Assembly (NCBI GenBank): GCA_964440555.1
Contig: CAYTSY010000012.1
Coordinates: forward strand, 1-37,806
Source: an uncultured Desulfobacteraceae bacterium
GTDB taxonomy: Bacteria; Desulfobacterota; Desulfobacteria; Desulfobacterales; UBA5616
Direction: 5' to 3'
Length of the DNA: 37,806 nucleotides
Below, one piece after another: positions 1,607 to 28,174 of this stretch. Position 1 is the stretch's first letter; every line of letters begins with the position of its first letter. The position numbers and the translations under genes are program-made. Under the pieces are notes generated by a model. It saw only the letters and a program-made list of their open reading frames with translations. It was not told where the DNA came from and made no database searches.

Positions 1607-4081
1607 ATGTCCAATCAGCCTCTTGACGATATCAAGGTGATCGAGTTAGCGACCATGGTTTCCGGCCCGTATTGTGCCAAGCTGCTGGCGGACCTGGGAG
1701 CGGATGTGATAAAAGTCGAGTCCCCGCAGGGCGACCCGGCCCGATCGTTTGGCCCTTTTCCCAAAAGCGGCCCCCATCGGGAGCGCAGCGCCCTGTTTCT
1801 TTACAACAACACCAGCAAACGGGGAATAACGCTTGATTTGAGGACTTCCGAGGGTATCGTCGAATTCAAACGCCTTATTCAATGGGCCGATGTTTTAATC
1901 GACAACCATCCGCCGGATGTACTTGAAAACGCAGGGCTTGGCTGGGAAACGCTTCACCTGATGAATCCGGCTCTGGTTTACACTTCGATTACGCCATACG
2001 GGAGAACCGGCCCACGGGCGGGATTCAAGGCCGGCGAACTGACGATAATGCATGCCGGAGGATTGGCCAACCTCTTGCCGGCCCGTTCGGTTGACGTGGA
2101 TCATCCCCCGGTCAAGCTGGGAGGCTTTCAGGCTGCCTATCATGGCGCCATCGCCGCGGCCCTGGCCACACTGGCGGTCGTAACAAACCGGTCGAAAACA
2201 GGGGGAGGCAAACTGATCGATATTTCTTTGCAGGAAGTTATTCTGGCCATGGTTTCGCCGAATGTTTCCAGCAGCCGTTACCATGATGCCACCTGGAGCC
2301 GTGTTCCGGACAGGCCTCCGGCCATGGGCCGGATGGAGACTAAGGACGGTTACATTCAATTCGGCGCGGCTGACGACCATCACTTCAGGGCCTTCCGGGA
2401 AGCGGCGGGAAAACCGGACTGGCTTGCCGGGGATGAATGGGACAACCGGGATTACCGCTTCTTTCATTTGATGGACATTGCGCCTCAGATGGACGCATGG
2501 ATGCTTGAACAAAAAAAAGAAGACCTGCACCAATCCCTCGGTAAAAGAGGCATCCCCATTGGCCCTCTCAATACGGCCAAAGAAGTGATGGAAAACCGTC
2601 AGTACCTGGCCCGGAAATATTTTGTTGAAGTGGACCACCCTGAAGCGGGAAAATACGCCTATCCCGGTTGGGCATATCACATGTCCGTCTCCAGTCCGGC
2701 AATCAGCAGACCAGCGCCCTTGCTGGGCCAGCATAACGAAGACGTCCGTAGCGGACTGCCTGTCAACGATCCTGCAATCGATACGCGTCGACAATCTCGC
2801 ATATCTCCTTTGCGCAGCGGCACTGTGTTGCTTCCGTTGACCGGAGTTCGCGTGCTTGACTTCAGTTGGGTTTACGCCGGCCCCTATGCCTGCATGCTTT
2901 TAGCGCAACTGGGCGCGGAAGTGATCAAAATAGAAGGCCACAAGCGGTCTGATTTAACGCGGCGGGCCGTGATGTGGCCCCAGCAGGAGACCGGCCCCAG
3001 TCTGCTGCTCCCAAACCAGGGCATGCCCTACAATGTCCTTAACCAGAATAAAAAAAGTCTGACCCTTGATCTCAGCAGACCGGAAGGCGTTGCGCTTGCC
3101 CGACGGCTTGCAGCCAAAAGCGACATCGTTATTGACAATATGCGGCCGGGCGCCATGTCTAAACTCGGGCTCGGATATGAGGATTTAAAGAAGATACGGC
3201 CCGACATCATCGATATCGTGCTTTCCAGCAGAGGGTATAACGGGCCTGAAACGGATTATCTCGGGTTTGCCGTCATCCATCAGGCGATCGGCGGTCTTGC
3301 CTATATCTCGGGATATCCGGACGACCATCCGACCCATGGTTCCGGAGGCGATGCGGACATTATGAATGCCCTTCTCACGGCGTTCATGGCCGTGACTGCG
3401 CTTCATCATCGAAACCGGGCCGGAGAGGGACAGTTTATCGATATCTCTCAATGCGAAAGCGTGACGTCTTTAATCGGGGAGACTATTTTAGAATACCAGA
3501 TGACCTCAAAAATTCCCCGGCGCTTGGGAAATGCCCACCCGTATTTTGCGCCGCACAGCGTTTACAGATGCTGGGGCGTGGATCGTTGGCTGGCCATTGA
3601 GATCCACACCGATGAAGAATTTTGCATTTTTGCAGAAGTCATCGGCCGGCCGGACCTTTCCGCAGACCCGCGCTTTGCCGATATGGCGGCCCGTAAAAAT
3701 AACGAGAAGGAACTCGATGCCATAATTCTTGAATGGACCCGCCAACGGGACCGTGACTGGATGGTGAATGAGCTGTGCAAAGCCGGTCTGGCCGCAGCCC
3801 CGTCCCGGGATGCCAAGGATCTGTATGCGGACCGTCATCTCATGGCCCGAAACGCCTTTGTGAAAATCATTCATCCTGAAATCGGAGAACTCGAATTGAT
3901 CGCTCCCCCGTTTAAAATTTCCGGTATCGAAATGAAAGCGGCATGTGCGCCTATGCTGGGAGAACACAATGAAAGCGTTCTCAAAGAACTGCTTGATCTG
4001 AGCGACGTAGAAATCATGGCGCTGCGCAAAAAAGAAATCATCATGCAAGACGGACAAAGCAGCCGGCCCCTTGATCGATAA
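1607..4081 (+). CDS. Tandem-fused family III CoA-transferase (two CaiB/BaiF-type domains in one 824-aa chain)
   Basis: There are two copies of the family III N-terminal signature. One is at aa 8-38 (DIKVIELATMVSGPYCAKLLADLGADVIKVE) and one at aa 414-443 (VRVLDFSWVYAGPYACMLLAQLGAEVIKIE). Each is followed by about 400 aa of CoA_transf_3-like sequence. RBS AAAGGA lies upstream of the ATG. Confidence 0.9.
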   Translation: MSNQPLDDIKVIELATMVSGPYCAKLLADLGADVIKVESPQGDPARSFGPFPKSGPHRERSALFLYNNTSKRGITLDLRTSEGIVEFKRLIQWADVLIDNHPPDVLENAGLGWETLHLMNPALVYTSITPYGRTGPRAGFKAGELTIMHAGGLANLLPARSVDVDHPPVKLGGFQAAYHGAIAAALATLAVVTNRSKTGGGKLIDISLQEVILAMVSPNVSSSRYHDATWSRVPDRPPAMGRMETKDGYIQFGAADDHHFRAFREAAGKPDWLAGDEWDNRDYRFFHLMDIAPQMDAWMLEQKKEDLHQSLGKRGIPIGPLNTAKEVMENRQYLARKYFVEVDHPEAGKYAYPGWAYHMSVSSPAISRPAPLLGQHNEDVRSGLPVNDPAIDTRRQSRISPLRSGTVLLPLTGVRVLDFSWVYAGPYACMLLAQLGAEVIKIEGHKRSDLTRRAVMWPQQETGPSLLLPNQGMPYNVLNQNKKSLTLDLSRPEGVALARRLAAKSDIVIDNMRPGAMSKLGLGYEDLKKIRPDIIDIVLSSRGYNGPETDYLGFAVIHQAIGGLAYISGYPDDHPTHGSGGDADIMNALLTAFMAVTALHHRNRAGEGQFIDISQCESVTSLIGETILEYQMTSKIPRRLGNAHPYFAPHSVYRCWGVDRWLAIEIHTDEEFCIFAEVIGRPDLSADPRFADMAARKNNEKELDAIILEWTRQRDRDWMVNELCKAGLAAAPSRDAKDLYADRHLMARNAFVKIIHPEIGELELIAPPFKISGIEMKAACAPMLGEHNESVLKELLDLSDVEIMALRKKEIIMQDGQSSRPLDR

Positions 4082-11797: not shown

Positions 11798-13339
11798 ATG
11801 GCTGAAAACAACAAAGACCCATACGATGTGATTATTATCGGCTGCGGAATCGCCGGGGCTACGGCCGGAGCCTTATTGGCTTCAAGGGCGAAAAAAAAAG
11901 TTCTGGTACTTGAAAGAGCAACGCGCACAGGAGGGAGAACCATTTCCTTCAGGGGGGAAGGGATCAAAACCACGGACGATTATCAGAAAGACCTCGCGGT
12001 TGCGGCCAACACCCGAGTCAGCGAACACACAAAGCCGCCGCTCAAAGAGATCATCGCCGACAAACTCCTTGACGGGTATGTACTGGAGTCCGGGGGCAGA
12101 GCCGGATGGTACACCAACCGCGGCCGCGTGAGCCATTTTCTCGCTGCCTTCAACAAACCTTCCATTTTTTATCCCAACGTGGGATTCGTATGGTTTGATC
12201 ATGAGTATAGGCTTTACGACGTCAAAAGAGGCGCCGGCTTCGAATGGATGTCGCACGAAGATATGGCGGAAACCAAGAAGATCGGCAGGGCGATATTATC
12301 CGTCGGTACCCCGGAAAATGCCGAAAAATATGACCGTGTCTCTGTAAAAGAATTTATGGACGCAATCACCGACAATCCCATGGCCCGGGAATTTTATAAC
12401 AACGTGTGCACCTTCCACACCGTCGTCAATGACCCCTGCCTGATGAGTATCAAAGAATCCATGAAGGCGACCTTAATATCCGAATGGGCGAAATGTTATC
12501 AAAATTATGGGGCGTGGGCTTTTTGCGGCGCACCAGGTCATGGGTATATCGTGGATAGCCTTGCCGATGAAATAAGACAACATGGCGGTGAGATCCTTAC
12601 CGGGGTCCGTGTCAAGGAAATCCTCATTAAAGACGGGCAAGCCCATGGCGTGGCGGTTGAGATGGATGGACAGATATCGGAAATATATGCGCCGGTGGTC
12701 ATTTGCACCGCTCCTCCGGATCGGTTGTTGGAAATTGTCCCCCAAGAGGCCTTGTCGCAGGATCTGTTTGTCCGTCTGAAAAACACGACCAAAGCAGGCT
12801 GCATCACCATCTGGCTGGGCATGAACAAACCGCTTACCGGTTTTACGGAAACGCCGATCAACCTAAGGAGTTTTTTTGTCGCTCCCGTAATCGCGACCGC
12901 CGAAGAGGGCTTTCAGGGAAATGTGCCCCTTGTTGGAGTCGATATATCCAGCATCGCTCCGACCATGGCGCCTGAAGGAAAGTATCTGGGGGTGATGGTG
13001 GCCAATATCCTCGGCCCGGAAACCCGGGACAAAGACAAGGTCTCTCTGATCATCCAAAGAATGCTTGATTTCGCGGATAAGGCGTTTCCAAATTATACGT
13101 CGGCGGTGAACTGGCGGATCGTCGCCATTACGGAAACCGCCTTATGCTGGCGCAAACCCGAAGATAAAAAGCCGGAGAACGTGTGCAGCACGGTTAAAGG
13201 GCTCTATTTTGCCGGCGATGCATACGGAGAAAAGGCCAACACCGGCGGAATCGAGGCTGCCTGTCATTCCGGAATACTTTGCGCCAATGAAATCACCGGG
13301 ATGAATTTCCTGGAGCTATTGCCGTCTATTCTTCGTTGA
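11798..13339 (+). CDS. FAD/NAD(P)-binding oxidoreductase, phytoene-desaturase (CrtI)-like family
   Basis: The N-terminal dinucleotide-binding motif YDVIIIGCGIAGATAGALLA...VLVLERATRTGGR is present, with the C-terminal GLYFAGD motif typical of amine-oxidase/CrtI-like flavoproteins. Confidence 0.85.
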   Translation: MAENNKDPYDVIIIGCGIAGATAGALLASRAKKKVLVLERATRTGGRTISFRGEGIKTTDDYQKDLAVAANTRVSEHTKPPLKEIIADKLLDGYVLESGGRAGWYTNRGRVSHFLAAFNKPSIFYPNVGFVWFDHEYRLYDVKRGAGFEWMSHEDMAETKKIGRAILSVGTPENAEKYDRVSVKEFMDAITDNPMAREFYNNVCTFHTVVNDPCLMSIKESMKATLISEWAKCYQNYGAWAFCGAPGHGYIVDSLADEIRQHGGEILTGVRVKEILIKDGQAHGVAVEMDGQISEIYAPVVICTAPPDRLLEIVPQEALSQDLFVRLKNTTKAGCITIWLGMNKPLTGFTETPINLRSFFVAPVIATAEEGFQGNVPLVGVDISSIAPTMAPEGKYLGVMVANILGPETRDKDKVSLIIQRMLDFADKAFPNYTSAVNWRIVAITETALCWRKPEDKKPENVCSTVKGLYFAGDAYGEKANTGGIEAACHSGILCANEITGMNFLELLPSILR

Positions 13340-13365
13340 CGTAAAAAATATAAAGAGGAGTCCCT

Positions 13366-14571
13366 ATGGAAATCTGTTTTACCGAAAAGGAACAGGCCTT
13401 TTATGATGAGGTGGAAGCGGCACTGAAAAGTATTTTGCCGCCGGACTGGGGCGACCGCCTCGTTGCCTGGCCTCACGATTACAGCGCGACAGGTTTTACT
13501 GATGAAGAAAGTCGCGCCATAGCCGCAAGATTCATGAAAAAGGCGATTGAAAAGGAATGGCTGACCATTTCCTGGCCCAAGGAATATGGGGGCAAGGCAT
13601 TCACCCATATGGAACAGGCCATATTCGACGAACGAACCAGTTATTATCGTATGTTAAACGCCGATGTCATTGCCGCCGGGATTGTGGGGCCCACGCTTTT
13701 AAGAATCGGATCAAAGGCCCAGCAGGAAAAATGGATCCCCAAAATCGCCTCGGGAGAGATTACGATGTGGCTCGGGTATAGCGAGCCCAACGCGGGTTCG
13801 GATCTGGCGGCACTCGAAACAACTGCCACGGAAGACGGGGATGCGTATGTGATCAACGGGCAGAAAGTGTGGTCGAGCACGGCCCATCATACGGACTGCG
13901 CCTGGCTGATCGCCCGCACCGACCCCGCCGCCGCCAAACATCGCGGGATCAGTTTTTTTATCGTGGACAACAAGACGCCGGGCATCTCGATGCGACCTTT
14001 GCCCAATATCATGGGCGAACACCATTTCAACGAGGTGTTCTTCGACAATGTCCGGGTTCCCAAGGAAAACCTGATCGGTGAGAAAAACAAGGGATTCTAC
14101 CATCTCATGACGGCATTGGATTTTGAAAGAACCAACCTGGTGGGTATCGGCGCATTCAGACGCATGTTTGAAGAACTGACAGACTATGTCAAGACCGCCC
14201 AACGCAACGGTAAACCGCTGGGCAATGCCTTGTCGGTAAGACATAAAATGGCGGACATCGCCACCCGGATCGAAATCGGGTACATGCTTTTCTGGAGAAT
14301 TGCGGAGATGCTGGACAAGAAACAGGATCCCAACGTTGAATCCTCCATCCTCAAGGTTGTCGCCACGGAACTGGCCCGGGATATGGCCGAGGCCGCCATG
14401 GATATTCTGGGGCCTTACGGCCATTTATATGAACAAACACCCTGGACGCCTTTACGGGGTCAGGTTTCCCGCGGGTTTTTGACCAGCATCTCCGCCACGA
14501 TAGGCGCGGGCACGTCTGAAATCCAGCGAAACATTATCGCCCAAAGAGGCCTGGGGTTGGCCAGGGCATAA
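13366..14571 (+). CDS. Acyl-CoA dehydrogenase family protein
   Basis: 401 aa with an ACAD N/M/C domain pattern (GYSEPNAGSDLAAL, INGQKVWSS, C-terminal GAGTSEIQRNIIAQRGLGL). Confidence 0.9.
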   Translation: MEICFTEKEQAFYDEVEAALKSILPPDWGDRLVAWPHDYSATGFTDEESRAIAARFMKKAIEKEWLTISWPKEYGGKAFTHMEQAIFDERTSYYRMLNADVIAAGIVGPTLLRIGSKAQQEKWIPKIASGEITMWLGYSEPNAGSDLAALETTATEDGDAYVINGQKVWSSTAHHTDCAWLIARTDPAAAKHRGISFFIVDNKTPGISMRPLPNIMGEHHFNEVFFDNVRVPKENLIGEKNKGFYHLMTALDFERTNLVGIGAFRRMFEELTDYVKTAQRNGKPLGNALSVRHKMADIATRIEIGYMLFWRIAEMLDKKQDPNVESSILKVVATELARDMAEAAMDILGPYGHLYEQTPWTPLRGQVSRGFLTSISATIGAGTSEIQRNIIAQRGLGLARA

Positions 14572-14606
14572 CATACCAGGGCATACCATAAAGGACAAAG
14601 ACGAAC

Positions 14607-15725
14607 ATGGAACTTGATTATACTGCGGAACAAAGACTTCTGAAAAAATCAGCCGTTGATTTCTTAAAAAAGGAATGCCCCGGAGAGCTTGTCAGGCAAA
14701 GCCGGGATGCAGCAGCAAATTATCCTGAAAAGCTCTGGAAGAAAATGGCCGAACTCGGATGGATGGGGGTTGCCGTCCCGGAGGAATACGGCGGCGCCGG
14801 CGGCGATTTTATCGATCTGAACATTCTGATGGAAGCCATGGGAGAAGCCTGCCTGCCCGCGCCTTTCTTTTCCACCGTGGTCATCGCCGGGACAGCGCTT
14901 TTGTCATCACATGCGGCGGAGTTGAAAAAAGAGCTCCTGCCGCAACTCGCCGCCGGAGAACTGATTTTCTCCTATGCGCTTATCGAACCGGATAACACCT
15001 ATGGTTTTTCAAACATTCAAACCACGGCCGTTAAAGCAGAAGACGGTTATACCCTTTGCGGGACCAAGCTGTTTGTGGAGTATGCGCAATCATCGGACTT
15101 TCTCCTTGTGGTCGCAGAAACGGCCGGACAGGGATTAGGGATATTTGTGGTAAAAGCAGATCTTCCGGGCGTTGAAATGAAAATGTTTAAAACTCTGGAC
15201 TATGCCAGGCAATGCGAGGTGGTCTTGGACAACGTCAATGTCAAAGACAGGTATTTGCTGGCCAAAGGTCCGGATGCCGAAAAGCTTCTCCAGGCCCTGG
15301 AGGAAAGGGCCTCGGTGGCCAAATGTGCTGAAATGCTCGGCGCCATGCAAACCGCACTGGAGATGACCGTGACCCATGCCAAAAACCGTCACCAGTTCGG
15401 CCGTCCCATCGGTTCTTTCCAGGCCATTGCCCACCATTGCGCCAATATGGCCATTGACGTGGATTGTTCCCGGTATATTATAAACCTCGCGGCGTGGAAA
15501 ATTTCGCGGGGGTTGCCCGCGGCAAAAGAGGCGGCCATGGCCAAATCCTATACCGGCCCGGCCTCAAATCGCGTTATAAAACTGGGACATCAGGTTCATG
15601 GGGCGGTTTCATTTTGTGATGAACACGACATGCATCTTTTCCTGCGCAAATGTAAGGCTGCGTCAATTGCGTTCGGAGACGCGGACTACCACCTGGAAAA
15701 AGTCGCTCAGGAACTCGGTCTTTAA
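14607..15725 (+). CDS. Acyl-CoA dehydrogenase family protein (second, divergent paralogue)
   Basis: 372 aa with an ACAD-like pattern (WKKMAELGWMGVAVPEEYGG, ALIEPD, GTKLFVEYA, RHQFGRPIGSFQAI). It lies 35 nt downstream of the first ACAD. Confidence 0.88.
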   Translation: MELDYTAEQRLLKKSAVDFLKKECPGELVRQSRDAAANYPEKLWKKMAELGWMGVAVPEEYGGAGGDFIDLNILMEAMGEACLPAPFFSTVVIAGTALLSSHAAELKKELLPQLAAGELIFSYALIEPDNTYGFSNIQTTAVKAEDGYTLCGTKLFVEYAQSSDFLLVVAETAGQGLGIFVVKADLPGVEMKMFKTLDYARQCEVVLDNVNVKDRYLLAKGPDAEKLLQALEERASVAKCAEMLGAMQTALEMTVTHAKNRHQFGRPIGSFQAIAHHCANMAIDVDCSRYIINLAAWKISRGLPAAKEAAMAKSYTGPASNRVIKLGHQVHGAVSFCDEHDMHLFLRKCKAASIAFGDADYHLEKVAQELGL

Positions 15726-15929
15726 TCTGTTTCATTTGCCAAGATGCCCTTGACTCCAGCGGGTTATCGGTTTATGGAAAAGGACTTATTTTTTTTAAAT
15801 CAAATATTCATAGGAGCAGGGCATCATCCGCCATGGGCAGAAAAGACCCGGTACAAATCAATAAGGATCAGCACATTTTTTTGATTTGTTGTCCGGGCGC
15901 TGATTTCGCCCTTGCGGCCCTGGTTGTAT

Positions 15930-16775
15930 ATGCGCCATCATCCGGAGTGGCTTAAACGACCCGTACCTGATTTGCAGGCCATTGAAGGCATGGAAAAGAT
16001 GCTTGGCCGGCTGCATTTGTCCACGGTCTGCCAAAGCGCCCATTGTCCCAATCTCGGGGAATGTTTTAACCGCGGCACCGCAACGTTTATGATTTTGGGA
16101 GATCAGTGTACGCGAAATTGCCGGTTTTGTGCGGTTGCGCATGCCGAAACGCCGCCTGCTCCCGATGAAAATGAACCGGAGCAGGTAGCCCGGGCCGCGG
16201 CTGAATTGGGCCTGCGCCATGTCGTGGTCACCTCCGTAACCCGCGATGATCTGGTTGACGGCGGGGCCGGACAATTTGCCAGAACCGTTGCGGCGATCCG
16301 AAAAATATGCCCGGAATCGGCCGTTGAAATTCTGGTTCCGGATTTCAACGGAGACCCCCGGGCTCTGGGCGCGGTTTGTGATGCACGGCCGGATGTTTTC
16401 AACCATAACGTGGAGACCGTTCCCCGCCTGTATCCGGAGGTCAGGCCCCAGGCCGTTTATGAAAGATCGCTGGCGGTTTTGGAATACGCTGTCGGCGCTG
16501 GGTTGACAACCAAATCCGGTTTAATGCTGGGATTGGGAGAAACACCGGATGAGCTGGACCTTGTCTTTGCCGACCTGGTGCATGCGGGCTGCACCATCTT
16601 AACCATGGGTCAGTACCTGGCCCCGTCAAAGGCCCATGCGGCGGTCAAACGCTATGTGCCGCCGCAACAATTTGACGACCTGGGCGAACGGGCCCGCAAG
16701 ATGGGGTTTAAAGCGGTCTTTGCCGGCCCCTTTGTTCGAAGCTCTTACCGGGCGGATGAAATTTATCAAAAATGA
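15930..16775 (+). CDS. lipA: Lipoyl synthase (radical SAM)
   Basis: PEWLKRP and the auxiliary cluster motif CPNLGEC are present, plus the radical-SAM CTRNCRFC within GTATFMILGDQCTRNCRFCAV. The ORF opens at TTG 15912. ATG 15930 was chosen as the start. Confidence 0.93.
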   Translation: MRHHPEWLKRPVPDLQAIEGMEKMLGRLHLSTVCQSAHCPNLGECFNRGTATFMILGDQCTRNCRFCAVAHAETPPAPDENEPEQVARAAAELGLRHVVVTSVTRDDLVDGGAGQFARTVAAIRKICPESAVEILVPDFNGDPRALGAVCDARPDVFNHNVETVPRLYPEVRPQAVYERSLAVLEYAVGAGLTTKSGLMLGLGETPDELDLVFADLVHAGCTILTMGQYLAPSKAHAAVKRYVPPQQFDDLGERARKMGFKAVFAGPFVRSSYRADEIYQK

Positions 16776-18535
16776 AACGTCTCGCATTCTTATATTTCCT
16801 TTGGATATTGCTGACGGGCTGCTTTGAGGCACAGGCGTCATGGGTGATTGATCCCGACCGTTTCCATGCCTCGGTTCATGGACAGACCACCTGCGTCGAA
16901 TGCCATGGGACCATGGCAAAGGATAAGCCTCATCCGGATCCGGGAAATGTAAATAACAAAATCGAAGATTTTTTTACTCCCGATACCTGCGCCGGGTGCC
17001 ATGAGACGGTTGAGGATTACCTTGAAGCCGGGACTCACGGCGGGGTCGATGTCGGGAAACCCGAAGATATCCGAAATTGCATCCGTTGCCATGATCCGCA
17101 TTATGAGCGCACCGCAGCCGCCGGCGATACGAAATTTGATCCGGCGGTTCCCATTGACCGGCAATGCGGGGCCTGCCATGATGCCCGGGAGCAACTGCCG
17201 GCGCCGGCCAAAAACGACATCGCGTGTTTGTCCTGTCACCGGCGTTTTAAATCGGGACAGCCCGAAGAAGTAAAACGGGAAGCCTCGCTTTGCTTTTACT
17301 GTCATGCCGGGGAAAATGCCGCCGATTTGTCGGCATCCATTCCATTTATCGATGCCAAAGGCCATAGCCGGACGCCCCATGGCAATTTATCCTGCCGGAC
17401 ATGCCACCCGAAATCGGCTCAATACGGTCATGCAAATCAGCCGGTTACGAATTGCCGCGCGTGTCACCTTCCCCATGACGAAAAAGTCGCCCATGACGCT
17501 CATATTCCGGTTTCGTGCGAAGCCTGCCATTTGACCGGTGTTTCCGCGCGGAGAAATAATACAAACGGACGGATCGAGGCTGTCAGGAACCGCTTTGGCG
17601 GATCAGCCGGAAACATTCACCATATGGCCATAACCGATAAAGAGGCGTCCTGCGGCAGGTGCCATTATTCAGGAAATACTGTCGGCGCATCGGCCATGGT
17701 GCTTCCGGCCAAAAGCATACTGTGTATGCCCTGCCATACGGCGACGTTTTCCGTGGGAGACACTGTGACGCTGTTGTCTCTGGCGGCTTTTGGCCTGGGA
17801 ATCTTTTCCCTGATGGTTGCGCTGCTTTCCGGCGGTTATGGCGATGGTGCGCCCAAAGGCCGGGCCGTAACGCTGGCTTTGGCCCTGCGGGATGCGGCAT
17901 CGACGATATTTTCCCGTAAAATCGGCGTCATCTCTAAATCCCTGGTCTTCGATGCCCTGCTCCAGAGGCGGCTTTTTGCCCAATCCCCATCCCGATGGGG
18001 GATTCATGCACTGATATTCTATCCGTTTGTCCTGCGTTTTTGCTGGGGGATGGTTGCTCTGATCCTTTCTCTTGTATATCCCCAAGGGGCGTTGACGCGG
18101 ATCTTGCTGGACAAAAATCATGCGGTTACCGGGCTTGTATTCGATCTGACCGGGCTGACGGTTTTATTGGGGGTCGGTCTGGCGGTTGCCCTGAAGAGCC
18201 GCAGGCCTGCCGAACAGTTTACGGGGCTGCCGAAAACGGATTGGGCCGCATCAGCCCTGCTGGGCGGCATCGTGGTGGTGGGGTTTGTCCTGGAGGGGAT
18301 GAGGATCGCCATGACCGGATTTCCGGCAGGCGATTCATGGGCGTTTTTGGGATACGCCATTGCCAAAACATTTGCCGGCATGACCGGGCTGTCCGATATT
18401 TACGGTTATATATGGTATCTGCATGCGGTGTTGACCGGGCTATTTATGGCGTACCTGCCCTTCAGCCGGATGCTGCACATGATTGTTGCACCGGTCGTCC
18501 TGGTGATGAACCGGTTAAAAGAAGAAAGGAAATAA
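16772..18535 (+). CDS. Fusion protein: signal peptide, 11-haem c-type cytochrome domain and C-terminal NarI/DsrM/HdrE-like membrane (cytochrome b-type) domain
   Basis: Eleven CXXCH motifs are present (CVECH, CAGCH, CIRCH, CGACH, CLSCH, CFYCH, CRTCH, CRACH, CEACH, CGRCH, CMPCH). They are followed by about 6 predicted TM helices ending in YLHAVLTGLFMAYLPFSRMLHMIVAP. This resembles the NarI-family FSRLxHxxxxP motif, with two His 18 residues apart. The start overlaps the lipA stop (ATGA). Confidence 0.85.
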   Translation: MKRLAFLYFLWILLTGCFEAQASWVIDPDRFHASVHGQTTCVECHGTMAKDKPHPDPGNVNNKIEDFFTPDTCAGCHETVEDYLEAGTHGGVDVGKPEDIRNCIRCHDPHYERTAAAGDTKFDPAVPIDRQCGACHDAREQLPAPAKNDIACLSCHRRFKSGQPEEVKREASLCFYCHAGENAADLSASIPFIDAKGHSRTPHGNLSCRTCHPKSAQYGHANQPVTNCRACHLPHDEKVAHDAHIPVSCEACHLTGVSARRNNTNGRIEAVRNRFGGSAGNIHHMAITDKEASCGRCHYSGNTVGASAMVLPAKSILCMPCHTATFSVGDTVTLLSLAAFGLGIFSLMVALLSGGYGDGAPKGRAVTLALALRDAASTIFSRKIGVISKSLVFDALLQRRLFAQSPSRWGIHALIFYPFVLRFCWGMVALILSLVYPQGALTRILLDKNHAVTGLVFDLTGLTVLLGVGLAVALKSRRPAEQFTGLPKTDWAASALLGGIVVVGFVLEGMRIAMTGFPAGDSWAFLGYAIAKTFAGMTGLSDIYGYIWYLHAVLTGLFMAYLPFSRMLHMIVAPVVLVMNRLKEERK

Positions 18536-18539
18536 GAAA

Positions 18540-18962
18540 ATGGAAATTGAAGGCTACACCCTGCCGGAGGATTTGTATTACGAGGAAAACCATTACTGGG
18601 TAAGGGTTGAAGGCGATATTTTGGTGATGGGAATGGATGATTTTGCCCGGAAGATGGCCGGCGACATCGTGTTTGTAAAGCTGCCGCCGGAAGGCAAAAC
18701 GATTGAAAAAGGAAAAAAATTCGCCCAGGTGGAGTCAGGAAAGTGGCTGGGCAAGGTTTATGCCCCGGTGAACGGTGAACTGGCGGGGGTAAACGAGGAA
18801 CTGGAAACCAATCCGGGCCTGATCAATCAGGATTGCTACGGCAAAGGCTGGATGTATAAAATTAAACCTGCTGATATGGCGGAAATAAACACCCTGATCC
18901 ATGCGCCGGGAGACATCGAGAAATGGGTCCTGGCCGATATCGAGAAGTATAAGCAGGACTGA
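18540..18962 (+). CDS. GcvH-fold lipoyl-carrier-like protein
   Basis: 140 aa with the H-protein pattern YYEENHYWVRVEGDILVMGMDDFA...VESGKWLGKVYAPVNGEL...NPGLINQDCYGKGWMYKIK. The lipoyl-lysine position is retained (K68, codon 18741-18743). It starts 4 nt after the cytochrome gene. Confidence 0.85.
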   Translation: MEIEGYTLPEDLYYEENHYWVRVEGDILVMGMDDFARKMAGDIVFVKLPPEGKTIEKGKKFAQVESGKWLGKVYAPVNGELAGVNEELETNPGLINQDCYGKGWMYKIKPADMAEINTLIHAPGDIEKWVLADIEKYKQD

Positions 18963-18963
18963 T

Positions 18964-20151
18964 ATGCCGGATAAAAATTATTCTGTCGGGGATTTGCTGG
19001 CCATGGAGGCCTGCACCAGGTGCCGCCTCTGCGCGGAGGTCTGTCCGGCGGTTCTGGCGTCGCAAAACGGGCGGTTGTCCGGGGTGTATCGCCTGGAAGA
19101 ACTGCGCAGGATCACCCGCAAACGCTCGGGATTGCTCTCTCGCTTTTTCGGCCGGAAACCGCTTTCCCCGGAAAAAATGAAACCTTTCAGCGAGACGGTT
19201 TTCAGATGCACGTTGTGCGGCAACTGCCAGGAAGTCTGCCCCGTCGGGATTCATTTGAAGGATATCTGGCTTTTGCTTCGTCAGGACCTGGTTTCCTCAC
19301 AGGCCTACCCGAAACAGATCGACCGGATACGGGACAACCTGTTTAAAAGCCACAATGTATTTAATGAAGACAACGAAGAGCGGGCCGACTGGGTTGAGGA
19401 TATGGATGATCCGCCGGATCACGGGTTTATCCGGGATAACGCCGAGGTTGTTTATTTTACCGGATGCGTAAGCGCCTACTTCCCCATGGCCCAGCAGATT
19501 CCCATATCTTTGGCAGAAATTTTTACGGCCGCAGAAGTGGACTTCACCTTATTGGGCGAAGACGAATGGTGCTGCGGTTTCCCCCTGCTGGGCGCGGGAC
19601 TCAAGGGCCGTTCGGCTGATATTATCGCTCACAACGTGGAAGCGGTCCGGAAAAAAAATGCCAAAACCGTGGTATTTGCCTGCCCGTCGTGTTTTCAGAT
19701 GTGGCAGGAACATTACCCCCCTGAATTTGAAATGATTCATGTCACGCAGTACCTGCACCGGCTGATTCAGGACAACCGCCTCCCGTTTCGGCCCCTGAAC
19801 CTGAAAGTCACCTATCATGATCCATGCGACCTGGGCCGAGGCGCCCGCGTGTTTGATGCGCCCAGGGAAGTGATCCGCAGCATTCCCGGCGTGCAGCTCA
19901 TTGAAATGGAACATAACCGGGAGAATTGCCGGTGCTGTGGAGGAGGGGGAAACCTCGAAATGATCGATGCCGGTCTTTCCGGGGACATTGCCGGCCAAAA
20001 AATCCGGGAGGTCCTGAAAACCGGCGCTGATGCCGTGGTCACGTCCTGTCAGCAATGCGTGCGCACCATGAAGACCTATGCACGCCGGAATCAGGTGGAT
20101 CTTAAAGTCATGGACATCACGGAGTTTTTGAAAGACGCCCTGAAGCATTAA
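18964..20151 (+). CDS. HdrD/DsrK-like iron-sulfur protein (two 4Fe-4S ferredoxin motifs plus two CCG domains)
   Basis: CTRCRLCAEVCP and CTLCGNCQEVCP are present. CCG domain 1 reads ...FTGCVSAY...WCCGFPLL. CCG domain 2 has a complete CX35CCX36CXXC signature (CDLGR...CRCCGGGG...SCQQC). ATG 18964 lies 1 nt after the GcvH-like stop, and the longer ORF-track start (18901) overlaps that gene. Confidence 0.85.
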   Translation: MPDKNYSVGDLLAMEACTRCRLCAEVCPAVLASQNGRLSGVYRLEELRRITRKRSGLLSRFFGRKPLSPEKMKPFSETVFRCTLCGNCQEVCPVGIHLKDIWLLLRQDLVSSQAYPKQIDRIRDNLFKSHNVFNEDNEERADWVEDMDDPPDHGFIRDNAEVVYFTGCVSAYFPMAQQIPISLAEIFTAAEVDFTLLGEDEWCCGFPLLGAGLKGRSADIIAHNVEAVRKKNAKTVVFACPSCFQMWQEHYPPEFEMIHVTQYLHRLIQDNRLPFRPLNLKVTYHDPCDLGRGARVFDAPREVIRSIPGVQLIEMEHNRENCRCCGGGGNLEMIDAGLSGDIAGQKIREVLKTGADAVVTSCQQCVRTMKTYARRNQVDLKVMDITEFLKDALKH

Positions 20152-20153
20152 TT

Positions 20154-21377
20154 TTAATTTTTCAACATTTTTTTCGTCCTCACCCCCAACGCCCCTGCAA
20201 TGGCCGTCAGCAGAATGAACAAAAAAAATACCGGTACATAGGAGCCCGCATAATCATAGACGGCCCCGGCCAGCCATGCGCCGATTCCCGCACCGAAGAT
20301 ATTAAACAGGCTTAAGATGCCGAAAATCGAACCGAAATAGGCCAGACCAAAGCAATCGGCCGTCAATGCGGGGTTGATCATCAGCGGAGCGCCGATGGCA
20401 TAGCCGTAAATCAGCGCAAAAACAACCGCCACCAAAAGGGTATTGGATTTCATCAGGATAAGAATGCCGATAATAATGACGGCGCAGGCCAGGACCACGA
20501 CTCTTCGAATTCCCCAGCGGTCTGCGAAAATCCCCATGGACACTTTGCCCAAAACCGTCATCGCGGAAATAATGCTGATGATCATTCCGGCAGTGATTTG
20601 TGCATGACCGATGTCCGTCAGATACGGTATCAGGTGAAGCCCCAGCCCCATTCCCACCATCCCCAGGAGGAACATCATTGCGGAAATCAGCCAAAATGAT
20701 CCGGTTTTAAGCGCAGGGCCAACCGGCAAACCGGCCTGCAGAACAGGCCCCGCCTGCGGGACAATGACGCCGCCGTCGGGTTTCAATCCCATATCCGATG
20801 GGCTTGTCTTGATAAAAATAAAGCAAAGGGGCGCCATGGAAAGGATGACCCACCCCATGATGAAGTATGAGGCCCGCCAGCCCCAATTGACCACGATCCA
20901 GCTCGTAACGGGCACCATGACCATCGATCCCAGACCGGTTCCCGTCATCACGATGCCGAGCGCCCTCCCCCTTTTTAAATTAAACCAGTTTGAAATAACC
21001 AGAGAAATGGGGATCAGCGTAGTTCCGGCCTGTCCGGCGCCGCTGATCATGAATAAAAGATAAAAAGCCCACAGGGACTGGGCCTTTGATAATCCCAGGG
21101 TGCAGGCGCCGATAATCAGCGCCCCCACGGTCATGATGAGTCTTGCGCCGATCCGGTCGATCAGTCGTCCCACCAAAGGGGCCATGATTCCCATGCAAAG
21201 CGACGCCAGGGTAAGTCCCATGGAAAATTGCGCCCTTGTCCACCCCATGGCCGTGGAAACCGGTTTGACGTAAACCGTGAACGTGTTGACCGATATCCCG
21301 AAGACGATGAAGTTGATCACAAAACACACGGCCACGATAAACCAGCCGTAAAATATTTTTGTTTCCTTGCTTGTCAT
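20154..21377 (-). CDS. MFS transporter (oxalate/formate antiporter-like family)
   Basis: 407 aa with about 12 predicted TM helices. The N-terminus KIFYGWFIVAVCFVINFIVFG and the loop motif GRLIDRIGAR are typical of OFA-type MFS proteins. Confidence 0.85.
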   Translation of the reverse strand: MTSKETKIFYGWFIVAVCFVINFIVFGISVNTFTVYVKPVSTAMGWTRAQFSMGLTLASLCMGIMAPLVGRLIDRIGARLIMTVGALIIGACTLGLSKAQSLWAFYLLFMISGAGQAGTTLIPISLVISNWFNLKRGRALGIVMTGTGLGSMVMVPVTSWIVVNWGWRASYFIMGWVILSMAPLCFIFIKTSPSDMGLKPDGGVIVPQAGPVLQAGLPVGPALKTGSFWLISAMMFLLGMVGMGLGLHLIPYLTDIGHAQITAGMIISIISAMTVLGKVSMGIFADRWGIRRVVVLACAVIIIGILILMKSNTLLVAVVFALIYGYAIGAPLMINPALTADCFGLAYFGSIFGILSLFNIFGAGIGAWLAGAVYDYAGSYVPVFFLFILLTAIAGALGVRTKKMLKN

Positions 21378-24764: not shown

Positions 24765-26516
24765 TCAGGGCGCGATGCTTGCAGCCCGAAACCCGAAGTA
24801 GGGCGCCACATAGGTCGGAGGTCTAAGCATCCGTTCATAACAGCGCAGAAAAACATCCCCGTATGTATAGGCGCCCCCCCGTCTTACCCGGTAAAAATTC
24901 GGGTGCGAATCCGGTCCCCGGGGATTGACAATTCCGTCCCAGGCCCAACTGTAATCATTCGAGCCGAAATCCCAGGTCCACTCCCAAACGTTTCCTGTCA
25001 TATCATACAGGCCGAAACCGTTTGGCGGGTAAATGCCCACCGAAACCGATCTTCCCATGTTGAAATTGGCGTTGGCGGTCCCCCCCAGGTCATCTCCCCA
25101 GGGATACCGTTTTCCTGTCAGGCCGCCGCGGGTCGCCTTTTCCCATTCCGCCTCCGTGGGGAGCCGATATCCGTCAGCATCCCAGTCCACCAATTCGCTG
25201 GTCAGATCGGCTTTTCCTGTCCGGTAAACAGAAGTATGACCGCTATCAGTATAATAGACCTGAGTCCGTCCCTCTTTTTCCGACCGGGCATTGAGCCATT
25301 TCACCACATCATACCAGGTCACGGCGGTTACGGGAAGATTGGTTCCGATGCCGTGGCTTCCGTTCAAACCCGGGTTATCAAACCCGTATCCGTTTACGAT
25401 AGCCCAGTCATATACGGTTTTCCACAGCTCATAGGTGGTTTCATATCGATCAATGTAAAAGGCATCGACAACCACCCGGTGTACGGGAAGAGCGTATGCC
25501 GTACCATCCAGGTTGTCGCCCATCTGAAATTCGCCTGCCGGAATTTCCATCAGTTGATGCACCGGCTTTTGTGCCAGCGGGGTGGCCGATACGGTCGCGG
25601 ATTGCACGCTTTCCCCGTATGAATTTTCCGCAGTCACAAATAGAAAATAGGCTGTTTTGTTCGTCAGGCCGGGGATGGTCACTGGGGAATTGCCGATATC
25701 GGTGATTTTGGTTCCGGTTTCCTTATCCAGGTACAGATCTGTGGCATAATACACGTTATAGGTCCGGGCGTCATTGACAGCAGACCAGGTCAGGGTAATT
25801 TTGCCGTTTCCTTCAACCGCCGTCACATCAGCAGGCGACAGCGGTGGTGGCACGGATAGCGGGATAGCGCTGACTTCAAAGGATGCGGCACTTTCCCCAT
25901 TGGCATTTTCGGCCGTCACCACAAAAAAGTAAGCCGTTTCGTTTAAAAGAGACCCCACCATCTGAGGACTTGCAGCATTGGAAACCTGAACCCCCGTCAA
26001 AGGGGTGACGCCCGGCGCTGTGCCGTAATAAATCGTGTAATTGTTTGCTCCGGTGGAGGCCGACCAGCTTACCCGAATCCGGCCCGACTCGCTTGCAGCC
26101 ACAATATCTCCCGGCGCCGGGGGAGGCGCAGTAGCCGAAGGAATGGCAAAAACTTCGTGAGAAAACGGTCCCTCACCATGCGTATTAACCGATGCGACCG
26201 CGAAATAATAGGTTTTTCCGTTTTGCAAGTCCCTGTGGGTATAGGGGCTGTGCATATCTTCAACCAGTATCCCGTTTTCAAAGGTCACGCCCGGTGTATC
26301 GGCGTAATAAACATTATACGTCTCTGCGTCGGCCACAGGAGACCACCGCAGAATCACTCTGGCATTCCCCGCATCGGCGATGATAGCGCTTGGCGCATCC
26401 GGCAACAGCTCATTTGCGACAGGTGCGGTTTCATTGCCTCCCCCCCCTCCACACCCTGGGATCCACATCACGCTCAAACAAAAAAGGACAATACGGATAA
26501 GTCTGTTCCCCGGCAT
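24765..26516 (-). CDS. Lipoprotein with three fibronectin-III-like repeats and a C-terminal FGE-sulfatase (SUMF1/PvdO)-fold domain
   Basis: The lipobox is MWIPGC. Three ~90-aa repeats are present (...RWSPVADAETYNVYY..., ...SWSASTGANNYTIYY..., ...TWSAVNDARTYNVYY...). The FGE-fold motifs follow (GEFQMGD, FYIDRYETT, PVTAVTWYD, YRLPTEAEWEKA, GNVWEWTWD, RVRRGGAY). ATG 26516 with a GAGAGGA RBS is preferred over the track start 26570. Confidence 0.8.
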   Translation of the reverse strand: MPGNRLIRIVLFCLSVMWIPGCGGGGGNETAPVANELLPDAPSAIIADAGNARVILRWSPVADAETYNVYYADTPGVTFENGILVEDMHSPYTHRDLQNGKTYYFAVASVNTHGEGPFSHEVFAIPSATAPPPAPGDIVAASESGRIRVSWSASTGANNYTIYYGTAPGVTPLTGVQVSNAASPQMVGSLLNETAYFFVVTAENANGESAASFEVSAIPLSVPPPLSPADVTAVEGNGKITLTWSAVNDARTYNVYYATDLYLDKETGTKITDIGNSPVTIPGLTNKTAYFLFVTAENSYGESVQSATVSATPLAQKPVHQLMEIPAGEFQMGDNLDGTAYALPVHRVVVDAFYIDRYETTYELWKTVYDWAIVNGYGFDNPGLNGSHGIGTNLPVTAVTWYDVVKWLNARSEKEGRTQVYYTDSGHTSVYRTGKADLTSELVDWDADGYRLPTEAEWEKATRGGLTGKRYPWGDDLGGTANANFNMGRSVSVGIYPPNGFGLYDMTGNVWEWTWDFGSNDYSWAWDGIVNPRGPDSHPNFYRVRRGGAYTYGDVFLRCYERMLRPPTYVAPYFGFRAASIAP

Positions 26517-26539
26517 GAATGACTTTATCCTCTCTGATT

Positions 26540-28174
26540 TTACCATAAAGAGATCGCACTGATAAAACAAATATCCGAATTGTGGGAGGGGGTTGATCCC
26601 ACCCCGGGCGCTGCGGGATCTTGTATTTGTCCGTTTTTGACGCCATCCTCATCTTCGGGTCCGCCATCCATCAAGGTGACTTCAATGTAGGTGTAAGGTC
26701 CTCCTTCCGGCATGAGCCGCATCGGAACATCACCCTGACCTCTCCATTCACCGTTGCGGATCTTAAACCAGCTCAGACCGTCTTTGATGGTTCCGTCAGC
26801 ATTTATAAAACTGTCAGGATTATCCGGATCCAATGCATCTTTAGGCGGTATGATCTTAAGAATGGCCTCTCCGCCTACCGGGACATTATTCAACGTAAAA
26901 TCAAATGATCCGATAGGAAGACGAACCGGGTTGCCCATCGTAGCCCGGCCATTATTGCCGTGGATTGCGCCTGAAATCGTGACGCCGTCTGTCGCTTCAA
27001 GTGTGACGAATCCTTTCTTCTGTATCGGGTAATCCGGTTCGGCCGTATCCGGGAGTATCTTTTTGGTGCTCTCCGTACTTGGATCGGCAAAGCCCAGGCT
27101 CATAAGAACCCAGGATGTGCTCATAATTGCGCTGGGATCAAGCCACTCCCCTTTGTACCAGTAGCAGTCGGCTTCCCTGTCATCTGTGGCAACCCTGTCT
27201 GTTTTCATACCCATCATGGCCTGCTTTAAATCCGTAACCCAGTCATTTTCTTGATTCGAGAATTTGTAATCGGCGGGAATAAGGCCTGTCAACCCCTTGG
27301 TCATGCCGTAAATACCGTAATAGTAGGCCTGAAAATTACCATAACCGGCGGTTTCCGTCCATGTATAATTATCGCCAAACCAATTCAGTGCATCATCAAC
27401 CGCCGGATCCGATTTGTCAGTATTGAGCATGGCAAGACACCATAGACCTGCGCCTGTCATGGGCGCGCCTTGAAAGCTGGAGCTGGTTGGGGCGTATTGG
27501 AAAACACCGGTGGCCGACTGGGATGCCCTTACAAAATTCTCGATTGACGCCTCAACATCTGCGGGCAACGGCTCGTCGAGTACGTAATGGTAGGCATACC
27601 ACAGCCCCATGACGGCAAACTGGGTATTGGAAAGATCAGTCCAACTGTCGTCGGCCTCATATCCCCACCCGCCGTTCGCATTCTGACCATTCAGGAGATA
27701 ATCAACCGCCGGCTGGATATAGGTATCTATAAAAACCGGATCCTGGGGATTGACGGAATGATACAGGGAAAGGGCGACAAGCGACAACCCGTTTTCATAG
27801 GTATCGTTATTGTCATATATGCCGCCAGTCTCCCTCTTGTAATCCTTTATCAATTCGATGGCCTTGTCTATTTGTGCTTTATAGAGGGGATCTCTGTATT
27901 TTCCGGTTTCGATAAGGGCCGCTACTGCCGCTGCTGTTCCATTAAGATTATTGGCATAGCTATGATTCAAATAATTGTAATAACCCGTGTCGCCGTCGTC
28001 ATGAAAGTTGTTGAAAAGAAACTGCTGCCCACCGGTCACTGCCGCGGCGACCTGTTCATCCAGGGTCACATCTGAATAACCGCTTACAGGAGTCAAAAAT
28101 AGGGCTGTAATTAAAAAAAATACAACAGCCGTCACACGCCGCTTAAACTTTGTTTTTTGCTTTTCCATGGGCAT
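26540..28174 (-). CDS. Secreted protein with a prenyltransferase/squalene-cyclase-like alpha/alpha-toroid repeat domain and a C-terminal beta domain
   Basis: A signal peptide (VVFFLITALFLTPVSG) is present. Repeats of the type NANGGWGY...LSNTQFAVMGLWYAY follow. The C-terminal domain ends in the acidic motif DGGPEDEDGVKNGQIQDP plus a short hydrophobic tail. Confidence 0.7.
   Translation of the reverse strand: MPMEKQKTKFKRRVTAVVFFLITALFLTPVSGYSDVTLDEQVAAAVTGGQQFLFNNFHDDGDTGYYNYLNHSYANNLNGTAAAVAALIETGKYRDPLYKAQIDKAIELIKDYKRETGGIYDNNDTYENGLSLVALSLYHSVNPQDPVFIDTYIQPAVDYLLNGQNANGGWGYEADDSWTDLSNTQFAVMGLWYAYHYVLDEPLPADVEASIENFVRASQSATGVFQYAPTSSSFQGAPMTGAGLWCLAMLNTDKSDPAVDDALNWFGDNYTWTETAGYGNFQAYYYGIYGMTKGLTGLIPADYKFSNQENDWVTDLKQAMMGMKTDRVATDDREADCYWYKGEWLDPSAIMSTSWVLMSLGFADPSTESTKKILPDTAEPDYPIQKKGFVTLEATDGVTISGAIHGNNGRATMGNPVRLPIGSFDFTLNNVPVGGEAILKIIPPKDALDPDNPDSFINADGTIKDGLSWFKIRNGEWRGQGDVPMRLMPEGGPYTYIEVTLMDGGPEDEDGVKNGQIQDPAAPGVGSTPSHNSDICFISAISLW

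Follow-up and report, generated by a model that had tools for sequence, protein, structure and literature searches.

Several membrane complexes are known in which an iron-sulfur protein with CCG domains works together with a NarI-like cytochrome b. In HdrDE of Methanosarcina, an HdrD-type subunit with two [4Fe-4S] clusters and two CCG domains is paired with such a cytochrome, and a cytoplasmic disulfide (CoM-S-S-CoB) is coupled to a quinone-type carrier in the membrane. DsrMK(JOP) and the Tmc/Hmc complexes combine a periplasmic multihaem cytochrome, a NarI-like cytochrome b and a CCG protein, with DsrC as a small protein carrier that has two redox-active sulfurs, while in EtfD/EMO of M. smegmatis (ETF:menaquinone oxidoreductase) NarI-like and HdrD-like parts are found on a single polypeptide whose partner is ETF. 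A GcvH-like lipoyl protein, LbpA, is tied to CCG Hdr-like proteins in the cytoplasmic sHdr sulfur system (PMC6067878; PMC10332631); LbpA is defined by a conserved lipoyl-lysine and by two conserved cysteines near the N and C termini (PMC6067878). Against this background, two gaps are long-standing: the route by which cytoplasmic reducing equivalents reach membrane or periplasmic cytochromes in sulfate reducers and syntrophs, and the thiol/disulfide substrates of many orphan HdrD-like CCG proteins. Here, a stretch of 37,806 nucleotides from an uncultured Desulfobacteraceae bacterium (contig CAYTSY010000012.1; ‘the window') was analysed, in which lipA is followed by the genes of a multihaem cytochrome c/NarI fusion protein, of a GcvH-like, putative lipoyl-carrier protein and of an HdrD-like protein (HdrD1). 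In an earlier note made from the sequence, these genes had been read as a membrane HdrDE/DsrMK-like module that acts on lipoyl-GcvH, a reading that is now supported by the domains, by the conserved linkage and by the distinct subfamily to which the GcvH-like protein belongs.

Conservation of the gene linkage

The three genes downstream of lipA (cytochrome, GcvH and HdrD; ‘the triad') stay together in well over 100 independent loci. Relatives of the cytochrome fusion protein were found in at least 227 species-level genomes, nearly all of them metagenome-assembled genomes (MAGs) of Desulfobacterales, Desulfatiglandales and Syntrophobacteraceae. Complete MAG chromosomes with the module include OY762721.1, CP070694.1, CP070697.1 and OY759352.1. 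The best 80 of these loci were examined, in 45 of which the sequence continues for 6.5 kb or more past the end of the cytochrome gene, and 42 of the 45 carry orthologues of both GcvH (61-81% identity) and HdrD (58-74%). In the reverse direction, at least 560 metagenome stretches matched the GcvH-like protein. Among the best 80 of them, an HdrD1 orthologue lies directly downstream in 53 of the 55 loci with enough flanking sequence, and the cytochrome gene lies upstream at 38% identity or more in 24 of 27; in the remaining three, it is 37% identical or sits on the opposite side. The association that the earlier note had proposed between the gcvH-like gene and the two redox genes is thus found in other genomes, and an adjacency unique to this contig is contradicted by the 42 of 45 and 53 of 55 loci that show the linkage.

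Within the window, the four genes lie on the same strand, and their open reading frames and gaps were verified. The TGA of lipA (16773-16775) overlaps the cytochrome ATG at 16772 (spacing of -4 nt), the cytochrome stop codon (18533-18535) is separated by 4 nt from the gcvH-like ATG at 18540, and the gcvH-like stop codon (18960-18962) by 1 nt from the hdrD-like ATG at 18964 (Table 1). In a 90%-identical relative, the lipA, cytochrome, gcvH and hdrD genes form the same unit, with a lipA of the same 281 amino acids and the same 4-nt overlap, yet the neighbourhood upstream of it differs; the four genes therefore appear to travel as a unit, independently of the acyl-CoA dehydrogenase genes that precede them in the window. 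With the unit kept in this relative and the triad in more than 100 independent loci, the arrangement is far beyond chance.

Table 1. Features of the four-gene unit (positions in the window).
Feature	Position	Strand	Description
lipA	15930-16775	+	Canonical radical-SAM lipoyl synthase, 281 aa
Cytochrome/NarI fusion gene	16772-18535	+	587 aa; 11-haem cytochrome c plus NarI-like membrane domain
Signal peptide and periplasmic 11-haem cytochrome c domain	16772-17746	+	Signal about aa 1-23; domain aa 24 to about 325
NarI/HdrE/DsrM-like five-helix membrane domain	17747-18535	+	About aa 326-587 of the fusion protein
GcvH-like lipoyl-carrier gene	18540-18962	+	140 aa; codon of lipoyl-Lys68 at 18741-18743
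HdrD-like gene (HdrD1)	18964-20151	+	395 aa; FeS protein

The GcvH-like protein, a putative lipoyl carrier

The GcvH-like protein matches GCV_H (PF01597) with 140 bits, lies just above the cut-off of the gcvH equivalog TIGR00527 (119.6 versus 115.85 bits) and scores 141 versus 117 for NF002270; it has the fold, the lipoyl-lysine and the equivalog score of an H-protein. A GcvH fold with K68 kept in VESGKW, as had been read from the letters, was confirmed. The surroundings of this lysine are of another kind. The subfamily carries the signature GKKFAxxESGKW(L/V)G(K/T) together with DCYG, with ESGKW and DCYG being found in 61 of 61 orthologues, whereas canonical GcvH has ES(V/T)K(A/S/T)(A/V)SD and DPYG, as judged from three reference sequences (E. 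coli, T. thermophilus and M. tuberculosis; two of them taken from PDB alignments). The charge of the lipoyl hairpin is thereby reversed, from four Asp/Glu and one or two Lys/Arg in the canonical proteins to five Lys/Arg here, in a protein that is acidic overall despite its basic hairpin. Its single cysteine (C99, in DCYG) is single in 59 of the 61 orthologues.

In a search of 1.8 billion representative sequences, the subfamily formed one 50%-identity cluster (240 bits), separated by a gap in score from the next full-length GcvH matches at 120-137 bits, many of which carry ESGKW(V/L)G(R/K). Apart from one ‘Desulfococcaceae bacterium HSG7', the best 120 matches came from MAGs or metagenomes, and the public annotation is ‘glycine cleavage system protein H' throughout (2,435 clusters at an E-value of 1e-20 or better). 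From these comparisons, the protein appears to be a specialised paralogue that forms a distinct subfamily with a remodelled, invariant lipoyl hairpin.

A glycine-cleavage or glycine-synthase H-protein, with the HdrD/cytochrome pair standing in for the L-protein or working beside it and so tying glycine metabolism to the membrane, would fit the public name and the passed equivalog cut-off as well as the 48%-type similarity to T. thermophilus GcvH. Among the frequent neighbours in relatives are a class-V (glyoxylate-type) aminotransferase and a GlcD-like, glycolate-oxidase-like protein (475 versus 568 bits), and in one metagenome locus (L169) fragments of GCV_T lie 5 kb from a related GcvH. However, neither GcvT nor GcvP recurs in the 80 genome loci (none among the gene clusters with at least four members). 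The subfamily has neither this linkage nor the canonical acidic hairpin, and the invariant basic/Trp motif that has replaced the acidic residues flanking the lipoyl-lysine argues for different docking partners. This role is judged unlikely; it would be a special case of the membrane module, with the P- and T-proteins as partners of GcvH.

The HdrD-like and cytochrome/NarI proteins

HdrD1 matches the Pfam families CCG (112 bits, two domains) and Fer4_8. Two [4Fe-4S] motifs of the form CX2CX2CX3CP (C17/20/23/27 and C82/85/88/92) are followed by two CCG motifs, C168-X34-CC203/204-X35-C240XXC243 and C288-X35-CC324/325-X36-C362XXC365. The earlier note had described both cluster motifs and both domains correctly, yet had credited only the second CCG motif with a full signature, whereas both are complete. 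All 18 motif cysteines (8 plus 10) are invariant in 49 of 49 orthologues and make up the full cofactor set of HdrC plus HdrB, as in an HdrD. As HdrD1 has no signal peptide, it is placed in the cytoplasm.

The fusion protein, from a family of 877 protein clusters at an E-value of 1e-5 or better, has a Sec signal (AxA-S site) at its start, followed by CXXCH motifs at residues 41, 73, 103, 132, 152, 174, 208, 228, 249, 294 and 318; the signal peptide and the haem motifs of the earlier description were both verified. All 11 motifs are invariant among 25 homologues, and 74 of 76 homologues have 11. This domain, in which Pfam matches to Cytochrome_C7 and Cytochrom_c3_2 were found, must be periplasmic. 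Across homologues the number of c-haems varies (6, 7, 10 or 11) and the membrane domain is kept: six CXXCH motifs are found in L082, L090, L098, L102, L132 and L158, mostly beside genes for E1 of pyruvate dehydrogenase (PDH) type, and ten in L088.

The assignment of the membrane domain to the NarI/DsrM/HdrE type stands in part. Here, its match to Nitrate_red_gam (PF02665) is below threshold (19.9 bits against a gathering score of 22.9), yet the same family is precomputed for many of its homologues, and the fold matches, though weak, point the same way. Five helices are predicted, with cytoplasmic loops rich in Lys/Arg. H412, H551, H569, R408, W409 and R422 are invariant, M514 is present in 72 of 76 homologues, and H412 and H569 lie at cytoplasmic helix ends, with H551 towards the periplasmic side. 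The spacings of H551-H569 (18 residues) and H412-R422 (10 residues) match what we take to be the ligand spacing of NarI.

In an AlphaFold2 model, the membrane part is predicted with a pLDDT of 70-89 and the haem domain with a pLDDT below 50, the latter being expected because it was modelled without haems. Foldseek with the membrane domain returned EtfD of M. smegmatis (9ojn; probability 1.0, E-value 0.066) as the top match, followed by NarI chains (TM-score of about 0.40); no match of the cytochrome model reached an E-value of 0.001, and only this EtfD/NarI ranking was used. EtfD (9ojn) is likewise the best solved relative of HdrD1 by sequence (E-value 3e-40), followed by HdrB. That the membrane domain (by fold) and HdrD1 (by sequence) are both nearest to EtfD, where NarI-like and HdrD-like parts are fused, supports one complex of the two proteins, in which HdrD1 would dock to the cytoplasmic side of the membrane domain.

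Variants of the module and wider partnerships

The loci fall into two architectures. (i) The short form, to which the window belongs, consists of cytochrome, GcvH and HdrD genes, and is often preceded by genes for PDH-type E1alpha, E1beta and E2 and for a divergent dihydrolipoyl-dehydrogenase-like flavoprotein. (ii) The long form (about 60% of loci) has the genes of a GlcD-like FAD oxidase and of a second HdrD (HdrD2; 28-30% identical to HdrD1 and with the same cysteines) between those of the cytochrome and GcvH; genes for a LarA-like 2-hydroxyacid racemase, a TRAP transporter, a GntR regulator and a class-V aminotransferase are common at its flanks. Two copies of this form lie on separate contigs (L035 and L042) of the MAG MFD00032.bin.1.156. 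HdrD1 is closer (40-41%) to the HdrD found beside ESGKW-type GcvH in other lineages than to the HdrD2 of the clusters it is part of.

Partnerships of GcvH and HdrD also occur outside these two forms. A Desulfitibacter-like Firmicute (L161:4375-12155) has a soluble version, without cytochrome or membrane subunit, that consists of GlcD-like, HdrD, GcvH-like, Lpl(AB)-DUF116, LipT-like and two radical-SAM genes. On an archaeal contig (L170:7001-9364; a TBP gene is nearby), a GcvH-like gene, a gene for a NarI-like membrane protein of 225 aa (19.6 bits for PF02665) and an HdrD gene lie in a row, with Lpl(AB)-DUF116, GG-reductase/LipT-like and radical-SAM genes upstream. Another locus (L166:979-12553) has the order E2, AhpD/CMD-like, GcvH, GlcD and HdrD, then LplA/radical-SAM genes and a second GcvH. 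This locus is densely centred on lipoate, with two GcvH-like, three LplA-like and three radical-SAM genes, one of the last being LipA-like (58% identity). An Anaerolineae MAG encodes a 1,391-aa protein (P0122; MFQ6102322.1) in which three GCV_H-fold domains, a GlcD-like FAD oxidase and an HdrD-like part (Fer4_8 and two CCG) are joined. Two loci hold the GcvH gene in other company: L138:178-3754 has E2, an E3-like gene and an ESGKW-type GcvH, without cytochrome or HdrD, and L145:788-1207 has GcvH followed by a beta-lactamase-fold gene.

A distant cognate is L165:465-5926 (Logan SRR22388171), which encodes a 7-haem/NarI fusion, 27% identical to that of the window, and an HdrD (41%), followed by DsrE, DsrE, DsrH, a GcvH-like protein (ESGKWVGR), TusA, DsrE and a 243-aa CCG protein; it resembles a membrane-bound version of sHdr-LbpA, the cytoplasmic sulfur system. 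Taken together, the Firmicute, archaeal, L165, L166 and Anaerolineae arrangements make the pair of HdrD1-type and GcvH-type proteins look like the evolutionary core, to which a flavoenzyme, a cytochrome b or a cytochrome b/c fusion seems to be joined.

L165 also speaks for a sulfur carrier in the style of LbpA/sHdr or of DsrC/DsrMK, with the dihydrolipoyl arm binding sulfane sulfur and the HdrD/cytochrome complex oxidising or reducing the bound sulfur, and in relatives of the window locus Lpl(AB), LipT-, LipS1- and LipS2-like genes lie by the triad as they do by shdr-lbpA (PMC10332631). Nevertheless, tblastn found no DsrE, DsrH or TusA in the window or in 160 Desulfobacterota-type loci, whose neighbours are instead genes of carbon metabolism (PDH-type E1/E2/E3, GlcD-like, LarA-like and TRAP transporters), and the GcvH-like protein is without the two cysteines that define LbpA. 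A sulfur carrier is thus quite improbable, and for the subfamily of the window the sulfur-relay reading was rejected on the negative tblastn result.

Lipoylation genes and genomic context

LipA scores 372 bits against the TIGR00510 cut-off of 310 and has a Radical_SAM Pfam match, which bears out its earlier naming as a canonical radical-SAM lipoyl synthase. The linkage of all four genes, also claimed in that note, holds for the triad and only narrowly for lipA, which adjoins the cytochrome gene in close relatives and in L001 and is substituted by other lipoylation genes elsewhere. Four kinds of these alternate beside the constant triad: LipA (window and L001), a LipB-LipA fusion, an Lpl(AB)-like ligase and an Lpl(AB)-DUF116 fusion set that includes GG-reductase/LipT-like, LipS1-like and LipS2-like genes. 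In the relatives concerned, the GG-reductase family gene scores 209 against a cut-off of 159, and the LipS1-like (219 against 230) and LipS2-like (216 against 270) genes fall just short of theirs. The triad is the constant element of these loci, and the route of lipoyl synthesis is the variable one.

The last alternative, very unlikely in our estimation, takes GcvH as a lipoyl-relay scaffold in the manner of Bacillus or mitochondria that serves E2 subunits, with the cytochrome/HdrD pair being a separate respiratory or ETF-type module or oxidising nascent dihydrolipoyl only: it draws on the lipoylation genes that are almost always nearby, on the E2 genes near some loci, on the kinship of both redox subunits to EtfD and on the two acyl-CoA dehydrogenase genes just upstream in the window, but it fits poorly with a gcvH-like gene that is constant between cytochrome and hdrD, in contrast to lipoylation genes of changing kind and location, with the many loci without an E2 gene, with the lack of an ETF gene in the window, with acyl-CoA dehydrogenases that are not kept upstream even in the 90% relative and with archaeal and Firmicute cognates that retain GcvH with HdrD. 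None of the three alternatives accounts as well for the constant placement of a remodelled GcvH between redox genes across phyla. The acyl-CoA dehydrogenases upstream had suggested an ETF-type reading, which was rejected as well, there being no ETF gene and no conservation of the upstream context.

The four-gene unit is preceded in the window by an FAD amine-oxidase/phytoene-desaturase-like oxidoreductase gene and two adjacent acyl-CoA dehydrogenase genes (11798-15725, +), the latter possibly a heteromeric pair, and is followed on the opposite strand by MFS, MeaB and 3-hydroxyacyl-CoA dehydrogenase genes. No gcvT, gcvP, ETF, dsr or sulfurtransferase gene was found among the window genes, and no CoM/CoB genes were seen. 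In a scan of 15600-20400 for promoters and terminators, the number of sites was not above that in shuffled sequences, and the scan is therefore uninformative on the transcript; Rfam and tRNA scans of the window gave no matches. Elsewhere in the window, 1607-4081 (+) encodes an 824-aa fused double CoA-transferase with two family III domains (636 bits, two stretches). The region 24765-28174 (-) encodes a 601-aa protein with fn3 repeats and a formylglycine-generating-enzyme (FGE-sulfatase) domain, whose gene overlaps the start of that of a 544-aa protein with a weak squalene-cyclase-like match only.

Proposed mechanism

The cytochrome/NarI fusion and HdrD1 probably form a transmembrane complex of the HdrDE/DsrMK/Tmc type, whose substrate would be the lipoyl arm of the dedicated GcvH. 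As a first step, LipA (in relatives, Lpl(AB), LipB-LipA or LipS1/S2-like enzymes) would assemble the lipoyl moiety at K68. Dihydrolipoyl and lipoyl states on GcvH would then be interconverted by HdrD1 at its two non-cubane CCG clusters, as HdrB does with CoM-S-S-CoB, and electrons would move on from these clusters by way of the two cubane [4Fe-4S] clusters, reaching haem b of the membrane domain, and from there to menaquinone and/or the 11 periplasmic c-haems, or would flow in reverse. GcvH would thereby be a mobile two-electron carrier, analogous to DsrC, between cytoplasmic enzymes and the membrane. Its cytoplasmic partners in relatives may be the E3-like flavoprotein with a PDH-type complex, or the GlcD-like/HdrD2 dehydrogenase. 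In the PDH context, GcvH could receive reducing equivalents from the E3-like flavoprotein, which would draw them from NADH or from dihydrolipoyl bound to E2; the electrons would thereby have a way out, independent of NAD, into periplasmic cytochromes or the respiratory chain.

The midpoint potential of lipoamide is about -290 mV, that of menaquinone about -74 mV and that of lactate/pyruvate (a 2-hydroxyacid couple) about -190 mV. As the potential of lipoamide lies well below that of menaquinone, electron transfer in this direction is downhill and oxidation of dihydrolipoyl would be favoured. Reverse flow, in which periplasmic H2 or formate would reduce lipoyl-GcvH via the c-haems and ultimately yield NADH, as has been proposed for Tmc/Hmc, is equally compatible with the sequence data.

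Several observations weigh against a complex that acts on lipoyl-GcvH. In the GlcD/HdrD2 architecture, transfer from a 2-hydroxyacid donor to lipoamide would be uphill, and in the window no obvious partner dehydrogenase for GcvH is encoded. Among CCG proteins such as GlpC, GlcF, LutA and EtfD, action on disulfides is not universal, and HdrD1 could therefore serve simply in electron transfer. HdrD is missing from two of the GcvH-anchored loci (L138 and L145), and at the ESxK place the GCV_H domains of P0122 have QPT, QPM or QSM instead of a lipoyl-lysine, so that they are probably not lipoylated. In the membrane domain, only three histidines are invariant, and one of the four NarI-type histidine positions, in a tentative mapping, appears to be Arg422; a distal haem ligand may have been replaced by this arginine, with M514 as a possible substitute.

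If the proposed complex does act on lipoyl-GcvH, it would represent a fourth general role of lipoate, beside those in 2-oxoacid dehydrogenases, in glycine cleavage and in sHdr. It gives a concrete candidate substrate for a CCG/cytochrome complex found in hundreds of uncultured Desulfobacterota. It could also explain, as we infer, how PDH-type complexes run anaerobically without inhibition by NADH, and it would correct a systematic mis-annotation as glycine cleavage protein H (in more than 2,400 clusters).

Comparison with known systems

No description of the module was found in full-text searches, in which most subscription journals were outside coverage, and the D. autotrophicum genome paper gives hdrD loci and no such cluster. 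The pairing of an HdrD-type subunit with a putative NarI-like cytochrome b, and the coupling that it would bring about, are those of HdrDE, from which the module differs in its bacterial host, in the protein-bound lipoyl group proposed as substrate in place of CoM-S-S-CoB and in the extra 11-haem periplasmic domain of the membrane subunit; no threshold of an HdrD-specific model was reached. With DsrMK(JOP)-DsrC and Tmc/Hmc, it has in common the set of cytochrome c, putative cytochrome b and CCG protein and, as proposed, a small carrier with two redox-active sulfurs. Unlike in these complexes, the cytochrome c and b parts are fused and the carrier has the GcvH fold instead of that of DsrC, and HdrD1 scores far below the cut-offs for DsrK (103.5 of 400 bits), TmcB (88.8 of 735) and HmcF (70.4 of 750); no dsr gene was found in the neighbourhood loci either.

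The tie between a GcvH-like lipoyl protein and CCG proteins is shared with sHdr-LbpA, whose dedicated lipoate-assembly genes may have counterparts in the Lpl(AB), LipT- and LipS1/S2-like genes of relatives (with LipA instead in the window), and the two systems would join in a broader partnership of lipoyl proteins and CCG enzymes. In contrast to the cytoplasmic sHdr system, the module would be membrane-bound with haems b and c, and is without sulfurtransferases or an HdrA flavoprotein (no HdrA-like family was found among the recurrent neighbours of the loci); its GcvH-like protein, unlike LbpA, is much nearer to canonical GcvH. EtfD/EMO is the nearest solved protein to both redox subunits, yet it is one polypeptide with ETF as its partner, whereas here the proteins are separate, a cytochrome c is added and a lipoyl protein is linked, with no ETF gene among the recurrent neighbours.

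Two further systems complete the comparison. The H-protein of glycine cleavage has the same fold and lipoyl-lysine, and reoxidation of its dihydrolipoyl arm is the reaction of the L-protein, which uses FAD and NAD+, whereas an FeS/haem/quinone acceptor is proposed here for a carrier with an altered hairpin and without gcvT/gcvP linkage. Dehydrogenases of the GlcD/GlcF type (LdhAB, Dld-II) resemble the GlcD-like flavoenzyme plus HdrD2 found inside the cluster of most relatives, frequently accompanied by a LarA-like racemase and a TRAP transporter, but these genes are absent from the window, and the known enzymes have neither an associated lipoyl protein nor a multihaem/NarI fusion.

The chances seem to us evenly balanced that an unrecognised class of electron transfer is represented here, in which a dedicated lipoyl-GcvH would serve as a DsrC-like dithiol carrier to an HdrDE/Tmc-like conduit with 6-11 c-haems, widespread in Desulfobacterota and with soluble (Firmicute) and cytochrome-c-free (archaeal) cognates. 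The module resembles HdrDE, DsrMK-DsrC, Tmc/Hmc, EtfD and sHdr-LbpA without qualifying as any of them, and is rated as a variant of the known partnerships of CCG proteins with cytochromes and of lipoyl proteins with Hdr-like proteins, and not as categorically new.

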